A model generated the notes under the pieces. The model worked only from the letters and a program-made list of their open reading frames with translations. It searched no databases and was not told the origin of the DNA. DNA of 32,000 bases, from contig CP126532.1 of NCBI GenBank assembly GCA_030167145.1, positions 2,880,001 through 2,912,000 of the forward strand, in the 5' to 3' direction. Within the stretch, counting starts at the first letter, position 1, and each line of letters begins with the position of its first letter. Both the position numbers and the translations under genes were made by a program. This DNA is from Ktedonobacterales bacterium. Lineage in GTDB: Bacteria > Chloroflexota > Ktedonobacteria > Ktedonobacterales > JADMIN01. This document shows, in pieces, positions 1,038-31,705 of the stretch.

Positions 1038-1214
1038 ATGCGCACGACTTATCGCGGCATTCGCGAACTGGTTCGCCTTTTCGCGGTTATCGCTGTCCTG
1101 GCTGTCGGAATTGTTAGCGTGGGGCTTGTGCCGACGCGCCATGCGATGGCCAGCCACGGTGGACCGAACACCCAGTTGGCTATTGAATGCCCCTCGGGCT
1201 TGAGTCACTGCTGA
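1038..1214 (+). CDS. small secreted peptide precursor (58 aa) ending in Cys-x6-Cys-stop; family member C
   Basis: AGGAG lies 8 nt upstream of ATG 1038. The peptide has a basic N-region (MRTTYRGIRELVR), a hydrophobic core (LFAVIAVLAVGIVSVGLV), then P-TRHAMA (A-x-A-like site) and the tail SHGGPNTQLAIECPSGLSHC*. The architecture and C-terminal C-x6-C match the peptides at 22459-22668 and 24253-24510. Confidence 0.5.
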   Translation: MRTTYRGIRELVRLFAVIAVLAVGIVSVGLVPTRHAMASHGGPNTQLAIECPSGLSHC

Positions 1215-5029: not shown

Positions 5030-6346
5030 ATGAGCCAGTTGCGGGTGTTCATCAGCCATGCTAAGGAGAATACGGCGTTTGCCGAGTGGCTGGCCAGCGA
5101 TCTGCGCCGCGCGGGGGCGGATGTGTGGCTCGACGCCAGCCATCTCGTAGGCCCGGGCGACTTTCTCGACAGGATCAACCGGGCGCTCAGCAATCGCGAT
5201 ATCCTCGTTCTCGTGCTCTCGCCCGCCGCGCTCGCGTCCAAATGGGTACCCGACGAGATGCATGCCGCCATCCTGCGCTACAAGGATGGCTTCATGGGTG
5301 CGCCGCTCGTCGTGGTGGCGCAGTCTGTCCCGCTGCAAGACATTCCTCCGCTCTGGGCCGTCTACAATCGCATTGACATCCCCAGGGACTATCGCGGTGA
5401 TTATCAAGCATCTCTGCCAAGTGTATTGAAAGCGCTGAGTCTGAAACTTTCTCTTCCGCAACCGTACAAACCTGCGACACTCACGCCCGCAACGGAGACT
5501 CCTTCGATTCCTGCTCCTTCACCGTCGGCCGCCGCGTCTGCTTCCGCGCCGCAGAGGCAGGCTGCCCCACCAGCATCGTCACCTGCACTGCCGATAGCTC
5601 CTCCTGCTCCCGCGCCGCAGAGGCAGGCAACCCCAGCACCTCGTCCGAATCCTACTTCTGCGCCCTCGCCCGCCCCGCAGGTGGCTCCGTCACCGTGGGC
5701 CTCTGCGCAACCGGCGCGGAGAGATTTGCCACTCAAACGCTCTGCTTCTGTGCCGGTCCCTGCCGGGCCGGTGGTGTCGCGGCGCAAATTGTTGATAACG
5801 ACCGGAGCCGTAGCGGCGAGCTTGACAACCGCTGGGGGAGTGGCGTTGTGGATTCACTCCCGCAGTTCTGGCCAGCAGCATTGGCGTGTCAAGACAGGTG
5901 GACCTGTGATTTCCTCGCCAGTGGTGGCGAACAACGTAGTCTATGTCGGTTCGGAAGATGGCTCCCTCTACGCGGTGGATGCGAGTGCGGGCAAGCCGCG
6001 CTGGCGCTTCCCGACCGGCAATAAGGTGGTGTCCTCGCCAGTGGTGGCGAACGGCGTGGTGTATGTCGGCTCAGGTGACGATTATCTCTACGCGGTGGAT
6101 GCGAGTGCGGGCACGCTACGCTGGAGGTTCCCGACGGGTGGCGAGGTGGATTCGTCACCAACAGTGGCGGACGGAGTGGTCTATGTCGGCTCAAGAGACT
6201 ACTCCCTCTACGCGGTGGACGCGAGTGCGGGCACGCAACGCTGGAACTTTCAAACGGTCGGACCTGTGCTCTCGAAACCTGTGGTGGCGAACGGAGTGGT
6301 GTATGTCGGCTCAGATGATGGCTACCTCTATGCGGTGAATGTCTGA
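5030..6346 (+). CDS. TIR domain / Pro-rich linker / single TM / 4-blade PQQ-like beta-propeller fusion protein
   Basis: GGAGGG lies 9 nt upstream of the ATG. The N-terminus (VFISHAKENTAFAEWLASDL...ILVLVLSPAALASKWVPDEM) shows a TIR pattern including the S-x-W-x-x-x-E glutamate (E76). Residues ~140-250 are Pro/Ala/Ser-rich with APQRQA twice. SRRKLLITTGAVAASLTTAGGVALWI is a hydrophobic span. Four 40-aa repeats follow (VVANxVVYVGSxDxxLYAVDASAGxxRWxF). Confidence 0.85.
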   Translation: MSQLRVFISHAKENTAFAEWLASDLRRAGADVWLDASHLVGPGDFLDRINRALSNRDILVLVLSPAALASKWVPDEMHAAILRYKDGFMGAPLVVVAQSVPLQDIPPLWAVYNRIDIPRDYRGDYQASLPSVLKALSLKLSLPQPYKPATLTPATETPSIPAPSPSAAASASAPQRQAAPPASSPALPIAPPAPAPQRQATPAPRPNPTSAPSPAPQVAPSPWASAQPARRDLPLKRSASVPVPAGPVVSRRKLLITTGAVAASLTTAGGVALWIHSRSSGQQHWRVKTGGPVISSPVVANNVVYVGSEDGSLYAVDASAGKPRWRFPTGNKVVSSPVVANGVVYVGSGDDYLYAVDASAGTLRWRFPTGGEVDSSPTVADGVVYVGSRDYSLYAVDASAGTQRWNFQTVGPVLSKPVVANGVVYVGSDDGYLYAVNV

Positions 6347-19682: not shown

Positions 19683-20942
19683 ATGGTAGTCTGTTCTCAC
19701 TGCGGACGGGAAGCGCGCGACGATAATCGCTTCTGCCAGTTCTGCGGCGAGCTACTCGATAGCACGCGCTCGAACGGATATGTCGCGCCTGAGCCAGCGT
19801 TCTCCACGTCCCCACCCGCTGCGCCGCCGGACAGCGGCGAGACCAACGAAATGCCCGCCATCAACGCAGCCGTTGTGCCGCCGGTGGCGGTGGCGACCGT
19901 CAGCGGCCCCGCGTCGCAGGCGCAGGCGCTGAGCCGGTTGTTGGTGCGCAAGGCATCGAGCGAAGGCGGCGAGGAGCGCGAGTACATCCTCGCGCACAAT
20001 GACATCGCCATCGGGCGCTCGCCGTCGTGCGATATCGTGCTCGAAGGTGACGAACTGGCGTCGCGTCGCCATGCGCTGATTCGTGTCAAGAATGGCGGCT
20101 ACACCGTCGTTGACCTGGGTAGCATCAACGGCACATATGTGAATGGCTACGAGATTCGTGAGGAGAAGCCGCTGAAAGAGGGCGACCGCATCGCGGTGGG
20201 CAGCCACGAGATTACCTTTGCCGTCGGCGCGGCGGGGCCGAATGCTTCGGTCGCGGGCGAGCGGCTCAGTGGCTCGTATCCGGCGGTGGCGGCCAGCGTG
20301 GCGAACGGCGCGGATGCCATTGACCAGGACGATAGCAGTGAAACTGCAGAGATTCCGGCGGTGCATCCTCCGGTGCGCCTGACGAGCGGCCCCATCGTCG
20401 CTGTCGGTGCGGCGGCGGAGGCGGGCGAGACGGAACAGCCCAGCGACGTGGCGGAGGCGCAGGCCGACGATGGCGCGGGCGATGGCACGGTGACTGATAT
20501 GCCATCGGCTGCGGCGTCCGCAGTGGCGCGTGCGGAGAAGGAGACGGCGCCGCTGAGCGCCGCCAGCGCCGAAGAACTGGAGGCGCTGAGCACGCAAATC
20601 TCGAATATCGCCGGTGTGCTGGCGCGCAAGGCCGACGAGGAGGCGCGCATCGCGACGCGCTATCGTGAGGCGCTGGTCGAACTGCGCGCGCAGGTGGAGC
20701 GGTTGATACGCCGCCAGGAAGAAGATGCAGCCGCGCCCGACGCGCCAGCGGCGCAGAACACCGAACTGGCCGAGATTGCGCGGCAGGCGGCGGAGAATCC
20801 ACGCCACCTGGATTACCTGACCAGCCTGGCGACGCACGGCCAGGAGATCGCCGCAGCGCTGGAGGCGCCCGCGCAGCCCGCTGGTGTGCCGGTGGATGAC
20901 CTGCGCGAGTTGCTAGAGCGTATCGCCGACGTACTGGGCTAG
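19683..20942 (+). CDS. zinc-ribbon + FHA domain protein with acidic/coiled-coil C-terminus
   Basis: N-terminal CSHCG...CQFCG zinc ribbon. FHA signature is IGRSPSCDIVL...SRRHALI...DLGSINGTYVNG. The C-terminal half is Ala/Glu-rich. Confidence 0.85.
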   Translation: MVVCSHCGREARDDNRFCQFCGELLDSTRSNGYVAPEPAFSTSPPAAPPDSGETNEMPAINAAVVPPVAVATVSGPASQAQALSRLLVRKASSEGGEEREYILAHNDIAIGRSPSCDIVLEGDELASRRHALIRVKNGGYTVVDLGSINGTYVNGYEIREEKPLKEGDRIAVGSHEITFAVGAAGPNASVAGERLSGSYPAVAASVANGADAIDQDDSSETAEIPAVHPPVRLTSGPIVAVGAAAEAGETEQPSDVAEAQADDGAGDGTVTDMPSAAASAVARAEKETAPLSAASAEELEALSTQISNIAGVLARKADEEARIATRYREALVELRAQVERLIRRQEEDAAAPDAPAAQNTELAEIARQAAENPRHLDYLTSLATHGQEIAAALEAPAQPAGVPVDDLRELLERIADVLG

Positions 20943-20959
20943 AGCAGGCGAAGGATCTC

Positions 20960-22384
20960 ATGGCAGAGCAACGCGACTTCGACGTGATCGTGATCGGCGC
21001 GGGGCTGGGCGGCTTGCTGTCAGCGGCGCAATTTCTGCGCCGGGGGCAGCGCGTGGTGGTGGTGGAACGGCTGGCGCATCCGGGCGGGCGCTTCACGGCG
21101 AAGACATTTCAGGGAGCGCAGGTCAGCACGGGCGCGGTGCATATGCTGCCCTTCGGCACCAATGGCGAACTGGCGGGGATGCTGCGTGCGCTGGGCATGC
21201 CGCACCGGATTCATGATTCCGAGGTGTTCGCGTCGTTTCATGTGCGCGGCAAGCAGTATGTCTGCCAGTCGCTGGCGCAGTTGCTGGGGGTGCTGGGTCC
21301 GCGCCAGTTCGGGGAACTGGTGCGGCTGGGTGGGCCGATCTTCCTGGGCAAGCCAACGCCGGAAGAGCGGACGATGTCCTTCGCGGCGTGGCTGGAGCGG
21401 CGCATGTCGCGGGCGCGCTCGCCGGAACTCTACGCCTACTTCGAGCGACTGGCGCATTTCGCGTTGAGCGTGGATCTGACCGACATCACCTATCCAGAGG
21501 TCTGCGAGATCACCAAGAATATGCTGCGCTACGGGCCGCCGGGGATCGTGGATGGCGGCTGCGCGGCGCTGACGGGGGAACTGGAGCGGCGCGTGACCGA
21601 GGGCGGTGGCGAGCTGCGGCTGCTGCATGACGTGCTGGCTATCGAGCACGACGGCGCGGCGGTGCGCGGGGTGCGCGTGCGCGACAAGCAATCGGGTGAC
21701 GAGACGTTGCTCTGCGCGCCGCTGGTGATCAGTAACATTGGCCCGCAGATGACCAAGACGCTGACCGGGATGAGCGCGCCTGCGGATGCGCCCACGGTGG
21801 CGATATCGGATGGTGGGGTGGGACACAGGCGCCACGAGGCGAGCGGGCTGAAGGTGCATTTGCTGAGCGATGTTTCGATTATTCCGCACAAGGGCATCAT
21901 GTATTGCCTGGATACCGAGCGCATCGCGGGGATCGTGCAGCCGAGCAACAGCGACCGCAGGCTGGCGCCGCCAGGGAAGCACTTGCTGATTACGCACCAG
22001 ATTCTGCGTAGCGACGATATGAACGCCGAACGCGAGGCGGCGCGGGCGGACCTGCGGCGGCTCTTCGGCGAGGCGTTCGGCACGAAGATTCGGATTTTGA
22101 CGATGAGCCAGTATCGCGGCGAGTGGCCGGTGAACCGCGTCGCGCAGGGCGAGGATGTGACACCTGGCACCGATCTGGCAGGGCTGTATCTGGTGGGCGA
22201 CGCGGTGAAGCCGTCGGGTTATCTGATGGTGGAGGGGGTGGCGCAGAGCGTCAACTCGCTGCTGGACCTGCTCGACGGCCCGCAGGCTGGCTCCGCGCGC
22301 CCGGCGCATACGCCGCGCAAGCCGCCCCGCGCCCGCGCGCTTCACTGGCTGGTGCGCCCGCCCACGCCGCACGCGGGGGCGTGA
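20960..22384 (+). CDS. FAD-dependent oxidoreductase (phytoene desaturase/amine oxidase-like)
   Basis: N-terminal Rossmann motif DVIVIGAGLGGLLSAAQF...VVVVERLAHPGGR and C-terminal LYLVGDAV. Starts 17 nt after the FHA gene. Confidence 0.85.
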   Translation: MAEQRDFDVIVIGAGLGGLLSAAQFLRRGQRVVVVERLAHPGGRFTAKTFQGAQVSTGAVHMLPFGTNGELAGMLRALGMPHRIHDSEVFASFHVRGKQYVCQSLAQLLGVLGPRQFGELVRLGGPIFLGKPTPEERTMSFAAWLERRMSRARSPELYAYFERLAHFALSVDLTDITYPEVCEITKNMLRYGPPGIVDGGCAALTGELERRVTEGGGELRLLHDVLAIEHDGAAVRGVRVRDKQSGDETLLCAPLVISNIGPQMTKTLTGMSAPADAPTVAISDGGVGHRRHEASGLKVHLLSDVSIIPHKGIMYCLDTERIAGIVQPSNSDRRLAPPGKHLLITHQILRSDDMNAEREAARADLRRLFGEAFGTKIRILTMSQYRGEWPVNRVAQGEDVTPGTDLAGLYLVGDAVKPSGYLMVEGVAQSVNSLLDLLDGPQAGSARPAHTPRKPPRARALHWLVRPPTPHAGA

Positions 22385-22458
22385 GAAACTGAGGCAAAAC
22401 AAGGGCCAGCCAACTGGCTGACCCCTGGGATAGTTGTGATGCACGATCCACTACGAAA

Positions 22459-22668
22459 TCAGCATGGAAGGGGAACGCCGCTGCAATTGGAAGTTGGCGG
22501 GTGAATCATCGCCACCGGCGCGGCGCTGTGCTGGCTGGCGTAGCCTGCATGTGCCACAGCGGACGGCAGGAATTGCCCGGCGGCCAGCAGCGCCGCGAAG
22601 ATGCCGGCGAGCATCATACCCTTTGCCCAACGAGTCGCATGGCGAGGAAGCGCGTGAAATAACCGCAT
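22459..22668 (-). CDS. small secreted peptide precursor (69 aa) ending in Cys-x6-Cys-stop; family member A
   Basis: AGGAGG lies 7 nt upstream of ATG 22668. Basic N-region, hydrophobic core MMLAGIFAALLAAGQFL, P-SAVAHA, and tail GYASQHSAAPVAMIHPPTSNCSGVPLPC*. I verified the translation codon by codon at the 3' end. Confidence 0.6.
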   Translation of the reverse strand: MRLFHALPRHATRWAKGMMLAGIFAALLAAGQFLPSAVAHAGYASQHSAAPVAMIHPPTSNCSGVPLPC

Positions 22669-22743
22669 GTGTTCGCCTCCTGTCGGCGTGAACTGAACCG
22701 ATGATGAGATATCCGAACAGTCAGGGGTATCAAGCTGACTCGA

Positions 22744-22772
22744 AGGATAGCAAACGATAATACAAAAGTCAA
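22744..22772 (-). promoter_or_regulatory. candidate sigma-70 promoter TTGACT-17-TATCCT for peptide A
   Basis: On the minus strand, TTGACT (22772-22767), a 17-nt spacer, then TATCCT (22749-22744), about 75 nt upstream of ATG 22668 in an AT-rich spacer. Confidence 0.4.
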
Positions 22773-22817
22773 GAGAACTGTTTCAAGATAGCAGAAAGAT
22801 AGGGTCATTTGCTGACG

Positions 22818-22833
22818 GCAATGTGCAAATTGC
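22818..22833. promoter_or_regulatory. 16-bp imperfect palindrome GCAATGTGCAAATTGC (candidate operator, box 1)
   Basis: 14 of 16 positions are symmetric. It overlaps a second inverted repeat, CATTTGC-TGACG-GCAATG (22806-22823). It lies about 45 nt upstream of the peptide A -35 element and 20 nt after the TPR stop. 13 of 16 positions are identical to box 2 at 24625-24640. Confidence 0.35.
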
Positions 22834-22853
22834 TGCAATTCTGCGCTGTATAC

Positions 22854-24074
22854 CTAAAGAAAGAGTTCTTGAAGAAGCCAAAGCCGATGTCTTGGCCGTC
22901 GCGCAAGAACAATCAAATCGCTATCGAAAGCCGACTGCGCTGCATATGCCAGATTTAACTTGGCCAAGTCAACCTGTCCACGAAGCTCGTACTCTATACC
23001 CAAGGAGGTATAGGCTTGAGTAATAATTGCCGTATCCTTGTGAACTTCTGCCCAGTAGATTACATTGACAATGGCGTCAAAACGCTGCCTTTCGGGACGT
23101 AGTAGTTGACTACCTCTAATGGCCGAAAGCTGTGCGAGATAGACACCAGGTTCATCTTTCGCGGAGTTGGCGAGCTCAATCGCTTTCCGTTGATAGTTAA
23201 GAGCGCGCTCAATTCTGCGCTCGCGTTCGGAACCCAATGGCAGTTGCTCACCTAAGCTAAGAATTGCCTCAACAGCAGTAGTCTGTGCGCGATTGGCGAA
23301 AAGAGAGGATTCCAAAGACGCAAAAGTAAGCGCAGCTTGAGTGGCATAATCGTCTGCCTCCTGGTAGTGGCCAGAATAGAGGAGTAGAAGCGCCAGATAC
23401 CATTTGACGCGAGTACTCGCCTCCAAGGGATTTGAGATAAACGATGTCAGCGTGCTAGCTTCTATCAGATGTTTACGTGCTGATTCCGCAAGATCCAAGT
23501 AGATTTCCGCCCCACTGGCATGAACGAGGAGTTGAAATTTGAAATCAGGTTTGACAAAGCCCGACAAGTCGAATGCATGAAGGCCATCTTGAAAGTCCTG
23601 AACCGCATGCCGTAGCCGTAAATCCGCTCGATAGACCAGTCCTCGCTGTTCATACAATCGCGCTAAGATTTCTTGCTCGCCTGGCATGTGTCTAGCAGCC
23701 TCAATTGCTGTGTTGAGCACAGGGAGTGCATCCAAATAGTGCCGACGCAAAACCTGAGCAGAAGAGTAGATCAATGCAAATCGAATGAATTGTCGACGAG
23801 ACGAGATTCTTTGCCGCCCATTCGAGTTTGGAGGCTCTACATAGGCTCTGATGAGCTGAACTACATGCCGTAGCTTTGCCTTGCTCGAAACCCCTGTATA
23901 TAGTGTGCTCTCTCGCAATAGATCGAAGCCGCGAGCGATGGTATCCTTCCTCTTTGGGACAAAGCCTGGCTCGGACATCCAATTGGGGTGATAATGCAAT
24001 TCAGCGGGATAGCGAATTGCCAAATTGGCAGAAATGCCGGATGAATCAAGAGGAGAACCGCTAGATGGAAACAT
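22854..24074 (-). CDS. TPR-like all-helical repeat protein (406 aa), unknown function
   Basis: AGGAGA lies 6 nt upstream of ATG 24074. Recurrent TPR-like helical pairs (ILARLYEQRGLVYRADLRLRHAVQDFQDGL; WYLALLLLYSGHYQEADDYATQAAL; AYTSLGIEYELRGQVDLAKLNLAYA). No Walker A motif and no obvious HTH. GC is much lower than the flanks. The longest ORF reaches 24191, which would lie upstream of the putative -10. Confidence 0.65.
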   Translation of the reverse strand: MFPSSGSPLDSSGISANLAIRYPAELHYHPNWMSEPGFVPKRKDTIARGFDLLRESTLYTGVSSKAKLRHVVQLIRAYVEPPNSNGRQRISSRRQFIRFALIYSSAQVLRRHYLDALPVLNTAIEAARHMPGEQEILARLYEQRGLVYRADLRLRHAVQDFQDGLHAFDLSGFVKPDFKFQLLVHASGAEIYLDLAESARKHLIEASTLTSFISNPLEASTRVKWYLALLLLYSGHYQEADDYATQAALTFASLESSLFANRAQTTAVEAILSLGEQLPLGSERERRIERALNYQRKAIELANSAKDEPGVYLAQLSAIRGSQLLRPERQRFDAIVNVIYWAEVHKDTAIITQAYTSLGIEYELRGQVDLAKLNLAYAAQSAFDSDLIVLARRPRHRLWLLQELFL

Positions 24075-24164
24075 ATTGGCTCTCCTGATGTCAGTCCACA
24101 AACCTTCATCACCCATAGGAATCGTGCATGACCAGTATACTACAAAAAGGAAAAGTGAATGCCG

Positions 24165-24170
24165 ATTATA
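24165..24170 (-). promoter_or_regulatory. perfect -10 hexamer TATAAT (minus strand) upstream of the TPR gene
   Basis: Plus-strand ATTATA at 24165-24170 reads TATAAT on the minus strand, about 90 nt upstream of ATG 24074. No convincing -35 element. Confidence 0.3.
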
Positions 24171-24252
24171 TGATATCATCAGCAGGGCCACAGATCACTG
24201 TATGTAAGCAGTTGACCCTGCCGACGGCCTCGTGTCTACGACGGCAAATTAA

Positions 24253-24510
24253 CTAACAAGTGGTAAGCAGTCCGCCACACTCGCCATCCCGGTGAATAGT
24301 GGCCATGGTGGCATGGGCAGGTGAAATCGCTGAGTGGCCGGCTGGCGCTGCGGCGCTGGCGGGGAGGAACTGCGCCACCGCGAGGAAGGCGGTGAACGCT
24401 GCTACGGAGACGGCCTGACGGACGACACGGGTGAACCACGGGGTGCGCGCTGGGTCACGTGGGGCTTGCCGTGGTGCGGGTGAGTTGGTTATGCTGTCGT
24501 TTGTGTTCAT
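24253..24510 (-). CDS. small secreted peptide precursor (85 aa from ATG 24510) ending in Cys-x6-Cys-stop; family member B
   Basis: Basic segment RTPWFTRVVRQ, hydrophobic core AVSVAAFTAFLAVAQFL, P-ASAAAPA, and tail GHSAISPAHATMATIHRDGECGGLLTTC*. Shares QFLP, the I-H dipeptide and the terminal C-x6-C with peptide A. The start is uncertain (ATG 24510, 24564 or 24606; only weak SDs). Confidence 0.5.
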   Translation of the reverse strand: MNTNDSITNSPAPRQAPRDPARTPWFTRVVRQAVSVAAFTAFLAVAQFLPASAAAPAGHSAISPAHATMATIHRDGECGGLLTTC

Positions 24511-24624
24511 TGTGGTGGGTGCTCCAGGCGTCGGACGACGCCGGCTGTGAACAAGTAGAGCCATTTTTGCCGCCCCAACAGGCGGCGAATCACGCGATGA
24601 ACTCATGCAAAAGTCTGGTCGCTC

Positions 24625-24640
24625 GCAAGCTGCAACTTGC
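24625..24640. promoter_or_regulatory. 16-bp imperfect palindrome GCAAGCTGCAACTTGC (candidate operator, box 2)
   Basis: 14 of 16 positions are symmetric, with the same GCAA-N-N-TGCA-N-N-TTGC design as box 1. It lies about 115 nt upstream of ATG 24510 of peptide B. Confidence 0.35.
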
Positions 24641-25288
24641 TTCGATCAGGCTTTTGTTTGTCATTAGGTCGGCATAGCATCCACCCCCCCTTCCACTCAG
24701 TTTGCCGCTCTGGCGTCCGAGATGGCTCTCGCGCCACGTGCCGTCCGCCTCCCGATCCCTGCTATCGGTGATAGTGGGTTCACACACATGCACCCGCTAT
24801 CTGGTCGGTGAGTGCGCCGCCGAGCCGGGAAACGTCCGCTCATTCGCAGCACCGCCTGTCCGCAAGTGCAGACAGCAGCATAAAAGGAAAAATGCTAGTA
24901 CATATATAGCACTATTCACTGCGTTCATGTCAAGAGCGAGAAGTGTTCCACCGCATCATCACACTATATAAGAGGATATATCTGGTCAAGTTTCGTTGTA
25001 ACAATCGAATTGCGCAACCCAAACGTATTGTCATATACGCGATACATACTGAGATATGATACTATCATCCAGGCGAGGACGCGCGGACACGAACGAGCTG
25101 GATTTTTGGCATACTGAGGCACGGAGCAGGCCGTTGCCGCAGCGCTACTGGCTTCGCAATGTGAGTTCGATGCAGGCACTGAGCGCGTATGTAGAGGCAG
25201 GCGAGTTTCGCGCCAGATGACTGGTTGCGGGCGCTGGGATGCAAAGCGTTACGATTGTCACACCTGCACAGCGCGCCGACGTGGATGC

Positions 25289-25615
25289 TCAACCAGCAGT
25301 GAGCCGCGCGCGTGTGACACATAACGCCGCGCGCTCATCCGCACTCAGGAACGGCAGACGGTCATCAGTGATCTCTACAATATCCAGCAGCCAGATGATG
25401 ATATCGGCGGCGTGCTCGATCGCGCGCCAATGTCCAACTTCTAGATGCGCTCGCTGGGCATAGGCGTTGGTCAGCGCGCGCGTAAAGGTATCTAGCCAGA
25501 TGAGCGTATATGCAGGATCGCCACGTTTTAGGTGGAGGAGACTCAGTTCGACTTCGCGCGCCAACTCGTCTGGCACATTCTCGACGAACGTGATGATCTC
25601 CGCGGGTGCTCTCAT
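25289..25615 (-). CDS. hypothetical protein (108 aa), no recognisable family
   Basis: AGGAG lies 6 nt upstream of ATG 25615. Balanced helical-looking composition (LAREVELSLLHLKRGDPAYTLIWLDTFTRALTNAYAQRAHL). Intermediate GC. Confidence 0.5.
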   Translation of the reverse strand: MRAPAEIITFVENVPDELAREVELSLLHLKRGDPAYTLIWLDTFTRALTNAYAQRAHLEVGHWRAIEHAADIIIWLLDIVEITDDRLPFLSADERAALCVTRARLTAG

Positions 25616-25887
25616 ACATTGCTCCTATCCCCCAACCCGCCGACTGGCATCAGGGTTCGCCCGTGTCTGAGTGGCGCATAGTGGCGCGTGCCCACTTCGT
25701 ATGTTGGCCTAACGTCATGTGATGATGAATTGTCACTTTCACTGCTAACTCTGCACAATCCCTTGCGTCGCTATCATATCACATGGAGAATGTCAATACA
25801 TATACCGAATACTCGTACTTGTGCGCGCACTTTCTTGCACCAGGTGGCGGCCCTCTGGCATCGCCACCGACCCGCCAGGTAGCGATA

Positions 25888-25932
25888 TGTCGCGGCTCTC
25901 TGTCGCGGCTCTCTGTCGCGGCTCTCTGTCGC
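25888..25932. repeat. perfect tandem repeat, 3.5 x 13 bp (TGTCGCGGCTCTC)
   Basis: Read directly. Lies in the 650-bp AT-rich spacer between the divergent 108-aa and HTH genes. Confidence 0.95.
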
Positions 25933-26150
25933 CGTCAGACCAGAGATTGCCGCCGTGCTGTGTGCTGGTTGGCCACATAATACCAGAAAATGCATGATAA
26001 AATACCGGGACCGTAGCTCTTTGGCGTCGAATGGCAGTGGGGCGACAATGACGCAACATTCGCTGATTTCAAGGGGTGTTTCCGCATCTTAGCGCACGAC
26101 CGCGCCTAGAGATGATAGGATATATTTCCTAATTGCGTCGTGGAATGGTC

Positions 26151-26198
26151 TTGACAATACTAGGACAATCAGGTATGCTTGGCAAAGCACGTTGCCAA
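26151..26198 (+). promoter_or_regulatory. sigma-70 promoter TTGACA-17-TATGCT with overlapping 20-bp palindromic operator TTGGCAA-N6-TTGCCAA
   Basis: Consensus -35 at 26151-26156 and -10 at 26174-26179. A perfect 7-bp inverted repeat (26179-26185 and 26192-26198) spans the -10 edge and the predicted TSS. It lies about 90 nt upstream of ATG 26268. Confidence 0.5.
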
Positions 26199-26267
26199 TT
26201 TGTGGAACAATTTTTCTATGGAACGTACCCTTATTGTGTACTGCTATTGTGGAAGGGATGATGCGAT

Positions 26268-26741
26268 ATGGTCTCGCCTACTAGCGGACGCCGTGGCGGC
26301 GGTAAGACCTATACGCTCAAAGAAGCCGGGCAGCATCTTGGCATAGATCAGAAAACGCTGCGCCGCAAAATGGATCTGCTCGGTCTCTCGCCAAAGCCTA
26401 GTGATGAAGATAAACGCGCCCTATTGCTCACATTGGACCAGGTGGATCTCCTGGCCAGTCATTTGCGTCGCATGCCAAGCGGGAACGTGTCCGCATTGCA
26501 AGAGATGGCGCTTCAGATCGTGATGGATCGCGAACGCGAGTGGCGGATGCGCAGCGAAGATCTGCAGCGCCATGAGCGCGATTTAATGGCCGAAATCGAG
26601 CAATTGCGGCGCGAGGTGCAGGCATTGCGAGCTGTGCGTAAGCCGTCTACCACGTCCGCTGAGATCGCTGTTGAGAAACACGCGCCCACGCAGGCCAAGG
26701 GCGACGTTGCCCATGCCTCGGATATGCCAGGTGAGAATTGA
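26268..26741 (+). CDS. helix-turn-helix DNA-binding protein with C-terminal coiled coil (157 aa)
   Basis: YTLKEAGQHLGIDQKTLRRKMDLLGL is an excisionase/MerR-like HTH pattern. A heptad-like segment follows (DLQRHERDLMAEIEQLRREVQALRAV). Confidence 0.65.
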   Translation: MVSPTSGRRGGGKTYTLKEAGQHLGIDQKTLRRKMDLLGLSPKPSDEDKRALLLTLDQVDLLASHLRRMPSGNVSALQEMALQIVMDREREWRMRSEDLQRHERDLMAEIEQLRREVQALRAVRKPSTTSAEIAVEKHAPTQAKGDVAHASDMPGEN

Positions 26742-28018: not shown

Positions 28019-29587
28019 GTGGAAGCCCAACAGGTTTGGCTGGCGGCGCTAGAGCGCGTGCGTCGCCGCATCTCACCGGGGGCGTATACAGCCTGGTTTA
28101 GCGGCACGCTGGGGCTTGCGCTTGAGCAGCGTATGCTTTCCGTCGCCGTACCCTCCACCTTTGCCAGCGAACACCTGCGTCAGCGCTTCGGCGAACTGGC
28201 GCGTATCGCTGTGAGCGAGGTGCTGGGCCTGAGCGCCGAGATTCGCTTCGTGGTGCGTGAGGTGACGGGTCCGAAGAACCAGACAACCAAGCAAACGTCA
28301 GCTAATGCCACCAGTGTCCGTAAACGTCGGGGCACGCGTGGCTCCAGCGTCACGCGTGTCGCGCTGGCCCGCCCGCCGCGCGTGGCTCCAGCGCCACTGC
28401 CGCCAGCGGCACAGATGCCGCTACTCTCGGCAGTCGAGCCGGTGGCGCCGGTGAAGTCGGTCTCGCACGTATCGTCCGCACCACCAGATGAGATGGTCGC
28501 CACACCTGATATGCTCGCGCGTGTACTGCCCGCATCACCCCAGCTCGCACGCGACGCTGTCCTCAGCAGGCCACGCGAGACCGCGACACGCTATCTCTTC
28601 GAGACATTCATCGTGGGCACGACGAACCGTCTGGCTTACGCGGCGGCGCAAGAAGTGGCGCAGAACCCCGGCGAACGTTACAATCCACTGCTGATTTACG
28701 GGGGTGTGGGTCTGGGCAAAACCCACCTACTGCATGCTATCGGCCATCTGACGCATCAGCGTGGCCTGAGCGTGGCCTATGTGACGGCGGAACAGTTTAC
28801 CAACGAGATTATTGAGGCGATCCGCCTGCGCGCGACCGATGCCTTCCGGGCACGCTACCGCGAGGTGGATGTGCTGCTGGTGGACGATATTCAGTTCATC
28901 GCGGGCAAAGAGTCTACGGAAGAAGAGTTCTTCCACACGTTCAACGCGCTGCACGAAGCCAACAAGCAGATTGTGCTGAGCAGCGACCGCGTGCCCCAGG
29001 CGATGCGCCAGTTGCATGATCGCCTACGTTCGCGCTTCGAGTGGGGTTTGATCGCCGATATTCAGCCGCCCGACTATGAGCACCGGCTGGCGATTCTGCG
29101 CGCGAAAGCGGCGACGCTGCCCACGCCACTGACCGATGAGACGCTGGCCAGCCTGGCGCGCCCCGAACACGAGAGCATCCGCGCGCTCGAAGGCGCGCTC
29201 ACTCGCGCGATGGCCTACGCGCGCATGCTGGAGCAGCCACTGACACCACGCCTGGTGGCCGACGCGCTGGCGCCACTGGCCGACAGCAGCAGCACGCGCC
29301 CGGTTGAGCCAGCGCAGGTGCTCGCGGCGGTCGCCGAACACTACCACTTCACCGTGGCGGAGCTTCAGAGTAAATCGCGCGAGCGCGCCATCGCCCGCGC
29401 CCGCCAGATCGCTATGTACCTGCTGCGCGAAGAGACCCCTACGTCGCTGGCGCAGATCGGCCAGCAGCTTGGTGGCCGCGACCACACCACCGTGATGCAT
29501 GGCTGCGCCCACATCGCGCAGGCGCTCGCCCAGGATGACACGCTGCGCCGCGAGATCGGCGCAATCCGCGCCGCCCTGCACGGCTAG
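28019..29587 (+). CDS. dnaA: chromosomal replication initiator protein DnaA
   Basis: GGGGAGG lies upstream of GTG 28019. Contains FETFIVGTTNRLAYAAA, Walker A GGVGLGKTHLL, Walker B LLVDDIQF, sensor/box VII SSDR, and the domain IV signature DHTTVMH. Confidence 0.95.
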   Translation: MEAQQVWLAALERVRRRISPGAYTAWFSGTLGLALEQRMLSVAVPSTFASEHLRQRFGELARIAVSEVLGLSAEIRFVVREVTGPKNQTTKQTSANATSVRKRRGTRGSSVTRVALARPPRVAPAPLPPAAQMPLLSAVEPVAPVKSVSHVSSAPPDEMVATPDMLARVLPASPQLARDAVLSRPRETATRYLFETFIVGTTNRLAYAAAQEVAQNPGERYNPLLIYGGVGLGKTHLLHAIGHLTHQRGLSVAYVTAEQFTNEIIEAIRLRATDAFRARYREVDVLLVDDIQFIAGKESTEEEFFHTFNALHEANKQIVLSSDRVPQAMRQLHDRLRSRFEWGLIADIQPPDYEHRLAILRAKAATLPTPLTDETLASLARPEHESIRALEGALTRAMAYARMLEQPLTPRLVADALAPLADSSSTRPVEPAQVLAAVAEHYHFTVAELQSKSRERAIARARQIAMYLLREETPTSLAQIGQQLGGRDHTTVMHGCAHIAQALAQDDTLRREIGAIRAALHG

Positions 29588-29693
29588 CCCACGCCGCTAG
29601 CCCGCCCCGCTGTCCGCGCGCATGATACACTGCATCGTAGAGGCGCCGATCTCCATCTACCGGAGCACCGGCCAGCAACCCAGGGGGCACACC

Positions 29694-30251
29694 ATGTCCG
29701 CCGTACCGAAGCAACATCTACTCACCGCCGAGCAATTCGCTGCGCTACCACGCGAGGGATTGAGGTTGGAGTTGATTCGAGGAGAGATGCTCGCCATGCC
29801 ACCAGCTTTTGGAGGTCACGGAAAAACGTCTATGCGTCTTGGCGTGGTGTTGGGCCAGTATGTCATAGCGCATTCACTCGGTGAGGTCTATGCCGCCGAA
29901 ACGGGCTTCTTAGTTGCCCGTAATCCCGATACCGTGCGCGCGCCTGATGTCGCATTCATCCAAACGAATCGTGTACCACCCAGGGAGATGGATAACGAAT
30001 GGGTTCCCGTGATCCCTGATTTGGTGGCGGAGGTGGTATCGAACGGCGACCGGAGCAAGGATGTGGCCGAGAAGGTGCAGATGTGGCTGGAAGTGGGCGT
30101 GCGGCTGGTGCTGGTCGCGCGCCCGCCAGAGCGCGTCATCGAGGTGCATCGCCCAAACGAGCCAGTGCTGACACTGCACGACGGTGACACGCTGGAAGGC
30201 TATGCTATTTTGCCCAGCTTTGCTGCTCCTGTCGCCAGCTTCTTCGGCTAG
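29694..30251 (+). CDS. Uma2 family (DUF820, PD-(D/E)xK) endonuclease
   Basis: Contains ELIRGEMLAMPP, APDVAFI and PDLVAEVVS...K motifs characteristic of Uma2. ATG 29694 is preceded by GGGGG. The ORF extends to 29622. Confidence 0.85.
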   Translation: MSAVPKQHLLTAEQFAALPREGLRLELIRGEMLAMPPAFGGHGKTSMRLGVVLGQYVIAHSLGEVYAAETGFLVARNPDTVRAPDVAFIQTNRVPPREMDNEWVPVIPDLVAEVVSNGDRSKDVAEKVQMWLEVGVRLVLVARPPERVIEVHRPNEPVLTLHDGDTLEGYAILPSFAAPVASFFG

Positions 30252-30377
30252 CTGGCCACCGCGAACATGTCCCCTCCTATGCCGCACCCATGCCTGTAGC
30301 CCTCGCTCGCGGCAGACCTCATGTGGCCACGCGCCCAACCTGGACGGTAACACGGGCGTACATATAGCACACTGCGG

Positions 30378-30406
30378 TTGACGGCATGCGCTATGGCATG
30401 TAAAAT
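30378..30406 (+). promoter_or_regulatory. candidate sigma-70 promoter TTGACG-17-TAAAAT
   Basis: Good match to both hexamers with a 17-nt spacer, about 90 nt upstream of ATG 30499. Confidence 0.45.
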
Positions 30407-30498
30407 GCTTCGTGTTGCGATATATATGGCGCGCGTGGCTTCGCGGACGGCGTGTATTGGCTGATACGGGCTGATGCGGAAGAAGGCGGAGGAGTACG

Positions 30499-31158
30499 AT
30501 GGCATCCCAGCGCACCGACCACCCATCCAAACGAGACGCCGGGGCAGTCGCCGCGCCACACCGCCGCTACTCCCTGACCCGCGACGTGGTTCGCGGCGCG
30601 GTCTGGGGCGACTTCGCCCTTGACAAAAAACTGCCCGGCACGCTGACGCAGATCATCCTCGGCTATGTGCCCGTGCTTGGCACGCTTGGCGCGTTGCGCG
30701 ATGCCTTCGCCGACTGGCGCACCCGCGATCCGCTGGGTGTGGCGCTGAACCTGCTCGCCGTCTTTCCCATCGCGGGTGGCATCCCCAAGACCATCGAGGT
30801 GCTGCATAGCGCGCACCGGCTACACCACTCGCTTACCCATCCGCAGCCACAATCGGTTCCCGCCACGCACTGGGGCGACCGGGCAATAGGCTGCGTGCTC
30901 TCGCTGATTTTGCCAGTGGCGGGGCTGCTCTACGGGCTGGGTGTGCAGCGGATGACGGCGGCGCTGCGCGCGAACGACGGCGCCATTGCCGCGTTTACGC
31001 TGCCAGGAAACGTTCTGCCGTGGGCGCCATGGATCTTGCTTGTCATCGGATTCTTCCTCGGCGTGGTTCTCAGTGTGCGCTCGCACTCCTGGCTGGGCCT
31101 CTTCTTCCTGCCGGCGGCGCTTGTGTTGGGATTCACGCTGCTCGCGGCAGTGGCCTAG
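30499..31158 (+). CDS. membrane protein, unknown function (219 aa)
   Basis: GGAGGAG lies upstream of the ATG. A soluble basic N-terminus is followed by about 4-5 hydrophobic spans. The segment GYVPVLGTLGALRDAFADWRTRD vaguely recalls pre-toxin TG-type motifs; that is not a supported call. Confidence 0.55.
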   Translation: MASQRTDHPSKRDAGAVAAPHRRYSLTRDVVRGAVWGDFALDKKLPGTLTQIILGYVPVLGTLGALRDAFADWRTRDPLGVALNLLAVFPIAGGIPKTIEVLHSAHRLHHSLTHPQPQSVPATHWGDRAIGCVLSLILPVAGLLYGLGVQRMTAALRANDGAIAAFTLPGNVLPWAPWILLVIGFFLGVVLSVRSHSWLGLFFLPAALVLGFTLLAAVA

Positions 31159-31705
31159 CGCTAGCATGTGGGCATGAGACGTATCCACAAGGCGTATCGG
31201 GAAGGAATGTCGCGGGGCGAGTGTGTTTCCACCGCATGCGGGCTTGCAGTATTTCCAACCGATGGGTGCGAACGAGGGCATAGATTGTGCAAGCATTTGG
31301 CCGCGATAGTTCTTCCTTCTCGTGGGGCTATTTTCGTATACGAGGCGTGTGCTCCTCTCCCTGGATTTTTGGCGTGCGTTCCGTTCCCCTTGTTCCGTTC
31401 CTTCATCCTATCTATACGGCAGAGAGTGCGTTTTCGTAGATTGCTCGCTGGAGCCTGCCGCTGGCGCTGGTATGGCGCGAAAGCCAGATGGCAAGCCAGA
31501 GAACACGCCTGTTCTTATCGCGGCATTCCCGTGTCATCATGTCGTGGGCCGAACCTCCTGTTTGCGCGACGTAGCCTTCTCGAGAGCATACATGAGACGC
31601 CTGGACGGCGTTCGCTAGAGATAGCGGGCAAACATCGCAGGGCGTCTGCTCGGCTGTGCCGCGTCAGGATGCGATAGGGCGCGCTTCCACTCGCACCTGG
31701 CAGCA

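Follow-up and report, generated by a model that had tools for sequence, protein, structure and literature searches.

Peptide quorum sensing of the RRNPP type has been treated as a speciality of the Firmicutes, and the tools that detect it have been applied only there (PMC10075063). Bernard et al. (2023) proposed a signature of five criteria for such systems: a propeptide of 10-100 amino acids (aa); its export by the Sec pathway (SignalP-positive) or by PptAB; a receptor of 250-500 aa; a match of this receptor to a tetratricopeptide repeat (TPR) hidden Markov model (HMM) at E < 1e-5 with more than 65% HMM coverage; and adjacency of the two genes, with a reference spacing of -50 to 191 bp (PMC10075063). 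Here, we analyse a stretch of 32,000 nucleotides (the window; contig CP126532.1, positions 2,880,001 to 2,912,000) from a soil Chloroflexi bacterium, a metagenome-assembled genome of the Ktedonobacterales, in which the gene for a 406-aa TPR protein is flanked by two genes for putative small pro-peptides, pepB and pepA. We give an even chance to the reading that this is a peptide-plus-receptor signalling cassette of an undescribed Ktedonobacterales family that works like Rap/Phr, its exported Cys-x6-Cys signal being re-imported and bound by the TPR protein. The literature examined on RRNPP systems in Chloroflexi, on quorum sensing in Ktedonobacter and on TPR anti-sigma factors yielded no earlier description of the family.

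The genes of the cassette lie on the minus strand in the order pepB, TPR gene, pepA. In that direction, the elements are:

24253-24510 (-): pepB, the upstream pro-peptide gene, 85 aa from the ATG at 24510; product ends ECGGLLTTC-stop
24086-24082 (-): AGGAG of the TPR gene, 7 nt 5' of its ATG, read from the sequence
22854-24074 (-): gene for the 406-aa TPR protein, putative peptide receptor (OJF49_002788), from the open reading frame (ORF) call and a fold model
22786-22757 (-): overlapping alternative promoter TTGAAA-18-TATTAT, a consensus match
22744-22772 (-): sigma-70-like promoter TTGACT-17-TATCCT with TG before the -10, in the spacer between the TPR gene and pepA; a consensus match only
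22676-22681 (-): Shine-Dalgarno sequence AGGAGG of pepA, 7 nt 5' of the pepA ATG, read from the sequence
22459-22668 (-): pepA, the downstream pro-peptide gene, 69 aa; product ends NCSGVPLPC-stop
22400-22427 (-): intrinsic-terminator-like hairpin with a 12-bp stem, 8 G-C pairs and a T-rich tail, 32 nt past the pepA stop

An initial annotation of this DNA had given the coordinates, strand, Shine-Dalgarno sequence, promoter, QFLP motif and tail geometry of the cassette, and all of these were confirmed on the sequence. The spacers measure 178 bp (pepB stop to TPR start) and 185 bp (TPR stop to pepA start), and the terminator-like hairpin after pepA closes the cassette. A promoter scan found 3 sites versus 1.4 expected, and the promoter call is therefore weak taken alone. 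The pepA product consists of a basic N-region (MRLFHALPRHATRWAKG), a hydrophobic core (MMLAGIFAALLAAGQFLP), an AHA site and the tail with its terminal Cys-x6-Cys; in the pepB product, likewise, a basic N-region and the core AVSVAAFTAFLAVAQFLP precede an APA site and such a tail, and in both the QFLP stands at the end of the hydrophobic core. Cleavage after AHA in pepA and after APA in pepB would leave tails of 28 aa with Cys at positions 21 and 28. In a single comparison, the two peptides are 38% identical over 60 aa (E = 1e-5). Longer pepB products are possible, starting at 24564 or 24606, and the JGI gene call for pepA is shorter, at 52 aa. We also considered that the TPR gene might be mobile and the peptide genes its flanking direct repeats or insertion scars, and rejected this idea: there is no DNA-level repeat, and the pairing recurs elsewhere.

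The recurrence of this pairing carries most of the argument. The sample comprised 15 cassettes in 14 independent loci (the window, the loci of 13 relatives, and a second cassette in locus L005), all scanned for small ORFs. In 14 of the 15 cassettes a same-strand small ORF adjoins the TPR gene, and the encoded peptide in each case runs from a basic N-region through a hydrophobic core and a variable linker to a C-terminal Cys-x6-Cys (Cys-x7-Cys in the second cassette of L005). The peptides of 12 of the 14 stop exactly at the second Cys. The motifs are as follows:

Window: CSGVPLPC (pepA) and CGGLLTTC (pepB)
L001: CAGVGLPC
L004: CDAMPFPC
L005: CSGISLPC; in the second cassette the C-x7-C variant CGGGTGGHC
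L006: CSGLMLPC
L008: CPALPIAC
L010: CSSIPLPC, plus 6 further residues
L011: CSSVPVPC
L012: CSGIPVPC
L015: CSAQPIPC
L016: CGGILMPC
L017: CAGSLIAC
L019: CPGAGSPC, plus 1 further residue

The peptide gene lies upstream of the TPR gene in L001, L010, L015, L016, L017, L019 and the second cassette of L005, and the window is the sole locus of the 14 with peptide genes on both sides. Stop-to-stop segments in 108 kb of DNA (the window plus related loci) provide a test of enrichment. Among segments on the TPR strand and within 700 nt of a TPR gene, 11 of 146 end in Cys-x6-Cys-stop, versus 7 of 1881 elsewhere (Fisher p = 4e-9). Two of these seven are themselves family peptides, namely L005 6438-6641, which falls outside the proximity rule, and a third paralog within the window, pepC; the other five have no hydrophobic core. 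The central idea of the initial annotation, a receptor-sized TPR protein with small pro-peptides in an RRNPP-like layout outside the Firmicutes, is thus upheld by the tests proposed there for refuting it, among them conservation of the small ORFs in relatives and co-occurrence of peptide and TPR genes.

The small ORFs are conserved in relatives at the amino acid level. The family consensus of the C-terminal motif is C-S-G-[IV]-P-[LV]-P-C, which the pepA tail NCSGVPLPC closely approaches. The peptides range from 48 to 85 aa, and only the two Cys are invariant in their alignment, the linker and N-region being free to vary. Since synonymous codons vary under kept residues (both AGY and TCN for the motif Ser, all four codons for Pro), what is conserved is the protein and not the DNA or RNA. 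Among close relatives of the L008 peptide, the loop interior varies and the Cys are kept (CPALPIAC, CTALPFPC, CTALPLPC). In six loci (L005, L006, L008, L010, L011 and L012) independent gene callers had already predicted the small genes. The N-region is net positive in 13 of 15 peptides, the tails are near neutral, scores of the hydrophobic windows run from 1.9 to 3.6, and sites of the A-x-A type are present in pepA, pepB, pepC, L004, L015 and L016. This topology fits either Sec signals, with cleavage predicted from these sites, or N-in/C-out membrane anchors.

Word-indexed searches with the TPR protein and pepA returned self-matches only, and the orphan status that they suggested was overturned by a full HMMER scan of 1.8 billion cluster representatives. 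The scan recovered 136 relatives of the 406-aa protein at E <= 1e-3, 34 of these at E <= 1e-10. The relatives are mostly about 380 aa long (110 of 135 members have 300-430 aa), and some sources label the family merely as TPR repeat proteins. A narrow-alignment locus search found one genome locus and one metagenome locus, and the named loci other than the window are also from Ktedonobacterales.

Against the Pfam TPR models, the best match of the window protein is to TPR_12, at E = 0.04 and so below threshold; 21 of 37 relatives match TPR_12 at E <= 0.001, the best at 1.7e-12. The all-helical TPR-like nature proposed for the protein is borne out by a confident AlphaFold model made from the 135-sequence alignment (pLDDT 91.3, pTM 0.90, 19 helices); a model made without an alignment reached pLDDT 46 and was not used. 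Two short N-terminal helices are followed by about seven TPR helix pairs and a capping helix, together forming a TPR superhelix, and the modelled fold of the window receptor could accommodate a peptide. Polar residues conserved in the family, given as the consensus in window numbering, include Q95, W225, R232, R262, D273, R320, R323, T356 and E361. Nine of 13 conserved polar positions are in A helices, eight of them in A4-A7. The A helices of TPR proteins line the inner groove, so that these residues, placed by a helix parity that was checked against Pfam TPR matches, probably lie on the concave face.

No membrane or signal segment was found in any of the 135 family members, the anti-sigma fusions described below included, and every hydrophobic window in these receptors belongs to a TPR helix or to the N-terminal region that the family conserves. 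The receptor is accordingly predicted to be cytoplasmic; an extracytoplasmic TPR in the anti-sigma fusions was considered and rejected on the same absence of a membrane segment. As the annotation had held, the window protein has no N-terminal helix-turn-helix (HTH) domain, at least among Pfam models at E <= 0.1. All other RRNPP subfamilies have one, and consequently only the Rap-type architecture is compatible with the window receptor.

Twelve relatives carry N-terminal extensions, and these indicate what the receptors may control. In two, P0081 and P0096, the extension is a zf-HC2 zinc anti-sigma domain (H-x3-C-x2-C) without a membrane segment. At the locus of P0081, the one examined for this pair, the gene overlaps by 4 nt the end of a gene for an extracytoplasmic function (ECF)-type sigma factor that passes the Sigma70_r2 cut-off. 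Five relatives have in common another helical N-domain of about 60 aa, and one of these is also behind a sigma gene; the sigma genes sit directly upstream of the TPR fusions, with a 4-nt overlap or a 3-nt gap. In P0003, P0008 and P0013, the N-terminal ~150 aa give a weak ImmA/IrrE (M78) match (E 0.002-0.006). These M78-like domains have RELAH or RELAR in place of HEXXH, which makes proteolysis doubtful, and the domain may be a non-catalytic pseudo-peptidase. In both loci examined for the M78 forms (L005 and L006) a 240-aa gene precedes them; the L006 protein has a weak XRE-type match (HTH_31-like), and the L005 copy is 32% identical to it. The two cassettes of L005 lie back to back within 5 kb:

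L005 1107-2659 (-): Cys-x7-Cys peptide gene, then a 385-aa TPR gene
L005 3236-6641 (+): XRE-like 240-aa gene, then a 798-aa M78-like-TPR gene, then the Cys-x6-Cys peptide gene

In the N-terminally extended cassettes examined, the peptide gene is always downstream of the TPR gene. Considering that one conserved module with its own peptide gene is joined to differing regulatory heads, the TPR is suggested to be the ligand-sensing module. The TPR gene, ECF sigma genes and XRE-like genes are the only genes recurrently linked across the 14 loci.

How might such a cassette work? In the Rap/Phr-like reading, each pro-peptide encoded by the small genes would begin with an export signal, continue in a variable linker and end in the signal proper, the conserved C-terminal octapeptide Cys-x6-Cys-COOH. 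The exported peptide would be trimmed, probably to a disulfide-looped form, and then taken up again. Re-uptake follows the logic of RRNPP systems and would be needed for contact, since the conserved end of the peptide and the receptor lie on opposite sides of the membrane. The peptide would next bind the concave face of the cytoplasmic TPR protein, at the clustered conserved polar residues that helix parity places there, and binding would switch the output of the receptor in a positive or negative sense. The window receptor would be the stand-alone form of 406 aa, likened to Rap proteins that act by protein-protein contact. In its paralogs the TPR is joined either to a zinc anti-sigma domain, with an ECF sigma gene directly upstream, or to an ImmA/IrrE-like domain of degenerate type, in a gene that follows an XRE-like one; from these fusions, peptide sensing would gate a sigma factor or a repressor.

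Among described systems, the Rap-Phr pairs of Bacillus, phages and plasmids resemble the cassette most in design. Common to both are a cytoplasmic all-helical receptor of about 380-400 aa with short N-terminal helices, about seven TPRs and no DNA-binding domain; a same-strand adjacent pro-peptide gene with an export signal (here a predicted one), its informative part at the extreme C-terminus, and a promoter-like site of its own; and several paralogous pairs per genome. The structures of RapJ (4gyo), phi3T Rap (8rsv) and pLS20 Rap (6t46) match the model with TMq 0.54-0.61 over about 380-396 aligned columns. The differences are also clear. The host belongs to the Chloroflexota and not the Bacillota, there is no specific sequence homology, and the signal would be an 8-residue Cys-x6-Cys motif, likely a disulfide loop, whereas Phr peptides are linear 5-6-mers. 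The peptide gene here may be upstream, downstream or, in the window, on both sides, and some receptors are fused to anti-sigma or ImmA-like domains. With no specific homology, no HTH and a host outside the Bacillota, the cassette is best filed as one that works like Rap/Phr, and not as a Rap.

The initial annotation had proposed fold comparison with Rap, NprR, PlcR and AimR. In Foldseek searches of the PDB, the best bacterial matches were pheromone-bound phage phi3T Rap, RapJ, pLS20 Rap, NprR and RapF, near full length and with TMq 0.48-0.61; AimR, PlcR and PrgX were not among the top 50 matches, and eukaryotic LGN/Pins scored better than any of these (E ~1e-7). LGN/Pins is also a TPR superhelix, whose inner groove encloses extended peptide ligands, and the likeness implies no evolutionary or functional link. 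Since LGN/Pins is the best overall match, the structural likeness is one to peptide-binding TPR superhelices in general. Searches with the family profile against PDB sequences reached Rap at E 5e-7 to 3e-5 over stretches of only about 100 aa, with LGN, KLC and designed TPRs ranking higher. Membership of the RRNPP family by homology thus dissolves into generic TPR similarity.

By the five-part signature of Bernard et al., the window cassette has three of the features outright (a small propeptide, the receptor size and direct adjacency). Sec export is judged by proxy only, and TPR content is evident in the fold but not at the HMM threshold, so that RRNPP_detector at its default settings would miss the cassette. 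The TPR receptor with an adjacent pro-peptide is also the design of NprR-NprX, PlcR-PapR, PlcRa-PapRa and AimR-AimP (NprR 5dbk gives TMq 0.56), and PapRa7 (CSIPYEY; PMC3519770) is an example of a Cys-containing RRNPP signal. Unlike these HTH-type receptors (NprR, PlcR, PlcRa, AimR), the window protein has no HTH; nor was a phage context found for it. The comparison with arbitrium systems of phages, which the annotation had drawn, lost its footing: phage, plasmid and viral collections yielded no relatives, viral contigs none by the narrow-alignment locus search, and AimR is absent from the top 50 PDB matches. A phage or integrative and conjugative element as the setting was rejected, no mobile-element context having been found.

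The fused relatives have parallels of their own. RapI-PhrI controls ImmA/ImmR in ICEBs1. The relatives of about 800 aa join an ImmA/IrrE-like domain to the TPR, behind an XRE-like gene and before a peptide gene, so that the functions of ImmR, ImmA and RapI plus PhrI stand side by side. They differ from ICEBs1, where RapI-PhrI control of ImmA/ImmR is mentioned in PMC9765709, in that the M78 matches are weak, HEXXH is degenerate and no mobile-element context was found; the window protein itself is without this domain. Soluble groups of zinc anti-sigma (ZAS) factors of unknown mechanism and signal exist in Chloroflexi, for example ECF271 (PMC8999054). P0081 and P0096 are like these in having a zinc anti-sigma domain without a membrane segment, with the TPR as a regulatory extension. 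In ECF42, however, the TPR extension is on the sigma factor, whereas here it is on the anti-sigma factor, and known soluble ZAS factors sense cytoplasmic redox stress directly, whereas here there is a dedicated gene for a peptide that is predicted to be exported. The window cassette lacks both the sigma and the anti-sigma part: there is no anti-sigma domain in its TPR protein and no sigma gene nearby.

Several observations weigh against the Rap/Phr-like reading. The similarity to Rap and NprR, in sequence as in fold, is generic TPR similarity with LGN/Pins ranking higher, and the RRNPP-specific Pfam models RapH_N and RNPP are unmatched among 37 members. No peptide permease is linked to the cassettes examined. 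Several hydrophobic cores span 20-27 aa, long enough for membrane anchors instead of cleaved signals. The candidate peptide of L018, the exception among the 15 cassettes, is convergent only, and pepC has no adjacent receptor. The window receptor itself is divergent, being the most distant member of the family (~27% identity, versus 40-48% among other members), and it lacks 5 of the 13 conserved polar positions. Its GC content at third codon positions is 0.46, as against 0.74-0.84 for neighbouring genes and 0.67-0.69 for the two flanking peptide genes (pepB 0.67). The window receptor may have been recently acquired or be fast-evolving, and replacement of the receptor, or its horizontal transfer from a relative of lower GC, is possible; the foreign-looking codon usage leaves its match to the flanking peptides in doubt.

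A rival possibility is that the peptide is never released. The small protein would then span the membrane once (N-in, C-out), with the Cys-x6-Cys loop as an extracytoplasmic sensor of redox state or metal, and the TPR or anti-sigma-TPR protein would dock on it, the two behaving like a two-piece membrane anti-sigma factor. Small membrane partners of this kind exist in the SigM and SigY operons of B. subtilis, and the order sigma, anti-sigma, small gene fits such an operon. The Cys pair is the sole invariant feature of the peptides, the fused anti-sigma forms have no membrane segment of their own, and several cores are of membrane-spanning length without a clean A-x-A site (for example L005, L006 and L011). 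However, the N-region, which would face the TPR, is unconserved and shrinks to three residues in L016 (MTR-), while the conserved part of the peptide would face away from the receptor, across the membrane. Moreover, L015, L016, pepA and pepB have putative cleavable signals of textbook form, with A-L-A or A-P-A sites. We consider such a split sensor unlikely. Quite unlikely, in our view, is the idea that the peptide is itself the product: an effector, bacteriocin-like, surface-active or developmental, that is secreted and disulfide-looped. The TPR protein would then be its cytoplasmic chaperone, immunity protein, maturation partner or regulator of expression. Class IIa bacteriocins such as pediocin do have C-terminal disulfide loops, pepC stands without a receptor, and ECF sigma operons are usually autoregulated, so that a co-transcribed peptide would be a member of the regulon. 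Nevertheless, the 14 loci share no gene for a transporter, an immunity membrane protein or a modifying enzyme, and the predicted mature tails are near neutral where class II bacteriocins would be cationic. Nor does the precursor resemble that of a ribosomally synthesized and post-translationally modified peptide: no modifying-enzyme genes are linked, and the N-region is a predicted hydrophobic export signal and not a leader of that type. The TPR fusions to anti-sigma and ImmA-like domains point to sensing and not to chaperoning, and strict one-to-one adjacency holds also for stand-alone TPRs without a sigma gene. The bacteriocin and immunity alternative raised in the annotation is weakened accordingly, relatives of the TPR protein being wired to ECF sigma/anti-sigma and XRE-type regulators in place of transporters or immunity genes.

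Perhaps the TPR protein instead binds the C-terminus of the pro-peptide before export, and this binding reports secretion load or acts as a titratable anti-anti-sigma, with no signalling between cells. The receptor and the nascent peptide would then both be in the cytoplasm, and no import system is linked to the cassettes. TPR carboxylate clamps recognise free C-termini, as Hop does with EEVD-COOH, and a motif at the free C-terminus suits recognition of this type. This arrangement leaves unexplained the universal predicted export signal, the two Cys and the diversification of the loop among close relatives, which is typical of secreted pherotypes, and we rate it as very unlikely. There is, finally, the suspicion that the small ORFs are untranslated and their likeness coincidental. 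Spurious ORFs are common in high-GC genomes, and NCBI annotates pepC but apparently not pepA. Chance or mis-calling is, however, effectively refuted by the comparative data: the enrichment next to TPR genes, a motif kept despite synonymous codon turnover across TPR partners that are only ~27-48% identical, the strong Shine-Dalgarno sequence and the terminator, and the independent gene calls in six loci.

A bolder claim goes beyond the Rap/Phr-like reading, and we put its chances somewhat below even: that this is the first Rap/Phr-style secreted-peptide receptor family outside the Bacillota, in filamentous sporulating Chloroflexota, with a probably disulfide-cyclised Cys-x6-Cys octapeptide as its signal, with paralogs in which soluble anti-sigma-TPR fusions couple peptide sensing directly to ECF sigma factors (an output not known for any RRNPP system), and with a convergent origin from generic TPR proteins. 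The design would then be either older than thought or convergently reinvented. The Ktedonobacteria, a poorly understood group of multicellular spore formers rich in natural products, would gain a candidate system of cell-cell signalling. For ECF sigma factors there would be a new mode of control, in which an extracellular peptide with a gene of its own gates a soluble anti-sigma factor. Being short, the Cys-x6-Cys motif is easily synthesised, which makes the hypothesis directly testable, and it offers a simple search pattern for further systems.

The third paralog lies far from the cassette in the window:

1038-1214 (+): pepC, OJF49_002764 in NCBI, 58 aa, MRTTYRG...ECPSGLSHC-stop

No TPR gene is adjacent to it, and its neighbour is a nitronate-monooxygenase-like gene. 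An ortholog (P0160), 86% identical, occurs in another sample. In L016 (97-1191, minus strand), a Peptidase_C14 (caspase-like) gene and an unannotated 231-aa gene lie divergently upstream of the peptide-TPR cassette.

On the pepA side of the window cassette, Zn-ribbon/FHA and amine-oxidase genes (19683-22384) are syntenic with L008 5446-7846 (32% and 72% identity). In L008 the TPR-peptide cassette sits on the opposite side of this gene pair, and in the opposite orientation, which suggests local movement or turnover of cassettes.

On the other side, about 1.7 kb upstream of pepB (24511-26267) has a lower GC content (0.52-0.55) and is gene-poor, with one modest ORF of 108 aa that has no family match (25289-25615, minus strand) and with TGTCGCGGCTCTC, a 13-nt unit repeated in tandem about 3.5 times (25888-25932). 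The low-GC stretch (24.6-26.3 kb) was considered as an oriC by dnaA and rejected, having no DnaA-box cluster and no Rfam match. It is followed at 26268-26741 (plus strand) by the gene for a 157-aa protein with a weak HTH_17/excisionase-type N-terminal HTH and a coiled-coil-like tail; linkage of such a gene to the cassettes was not counted, since only the 21-residue HTH aligns with a 148-aa HTH_17 protein encoded near the cassette of L001 (E = 0.001). The dnaA gene is 4 kb from the TPR gene, and the region 28019-31677 holds dnaA, then a gene for a putative endonuclease of the Uma2 family (29622-30251) and short ORFs, with no ORF of dnaN size; the cumulative GC skew flattens at about 29 kb in the window. 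Elsewhere, the product of 5030-6346 (plus strand), 438 aa long, has a TIR domain at its N-terminus and also a PQQ/BamB-like beta-propeller, a combination that recalls defence or signalling proteins.

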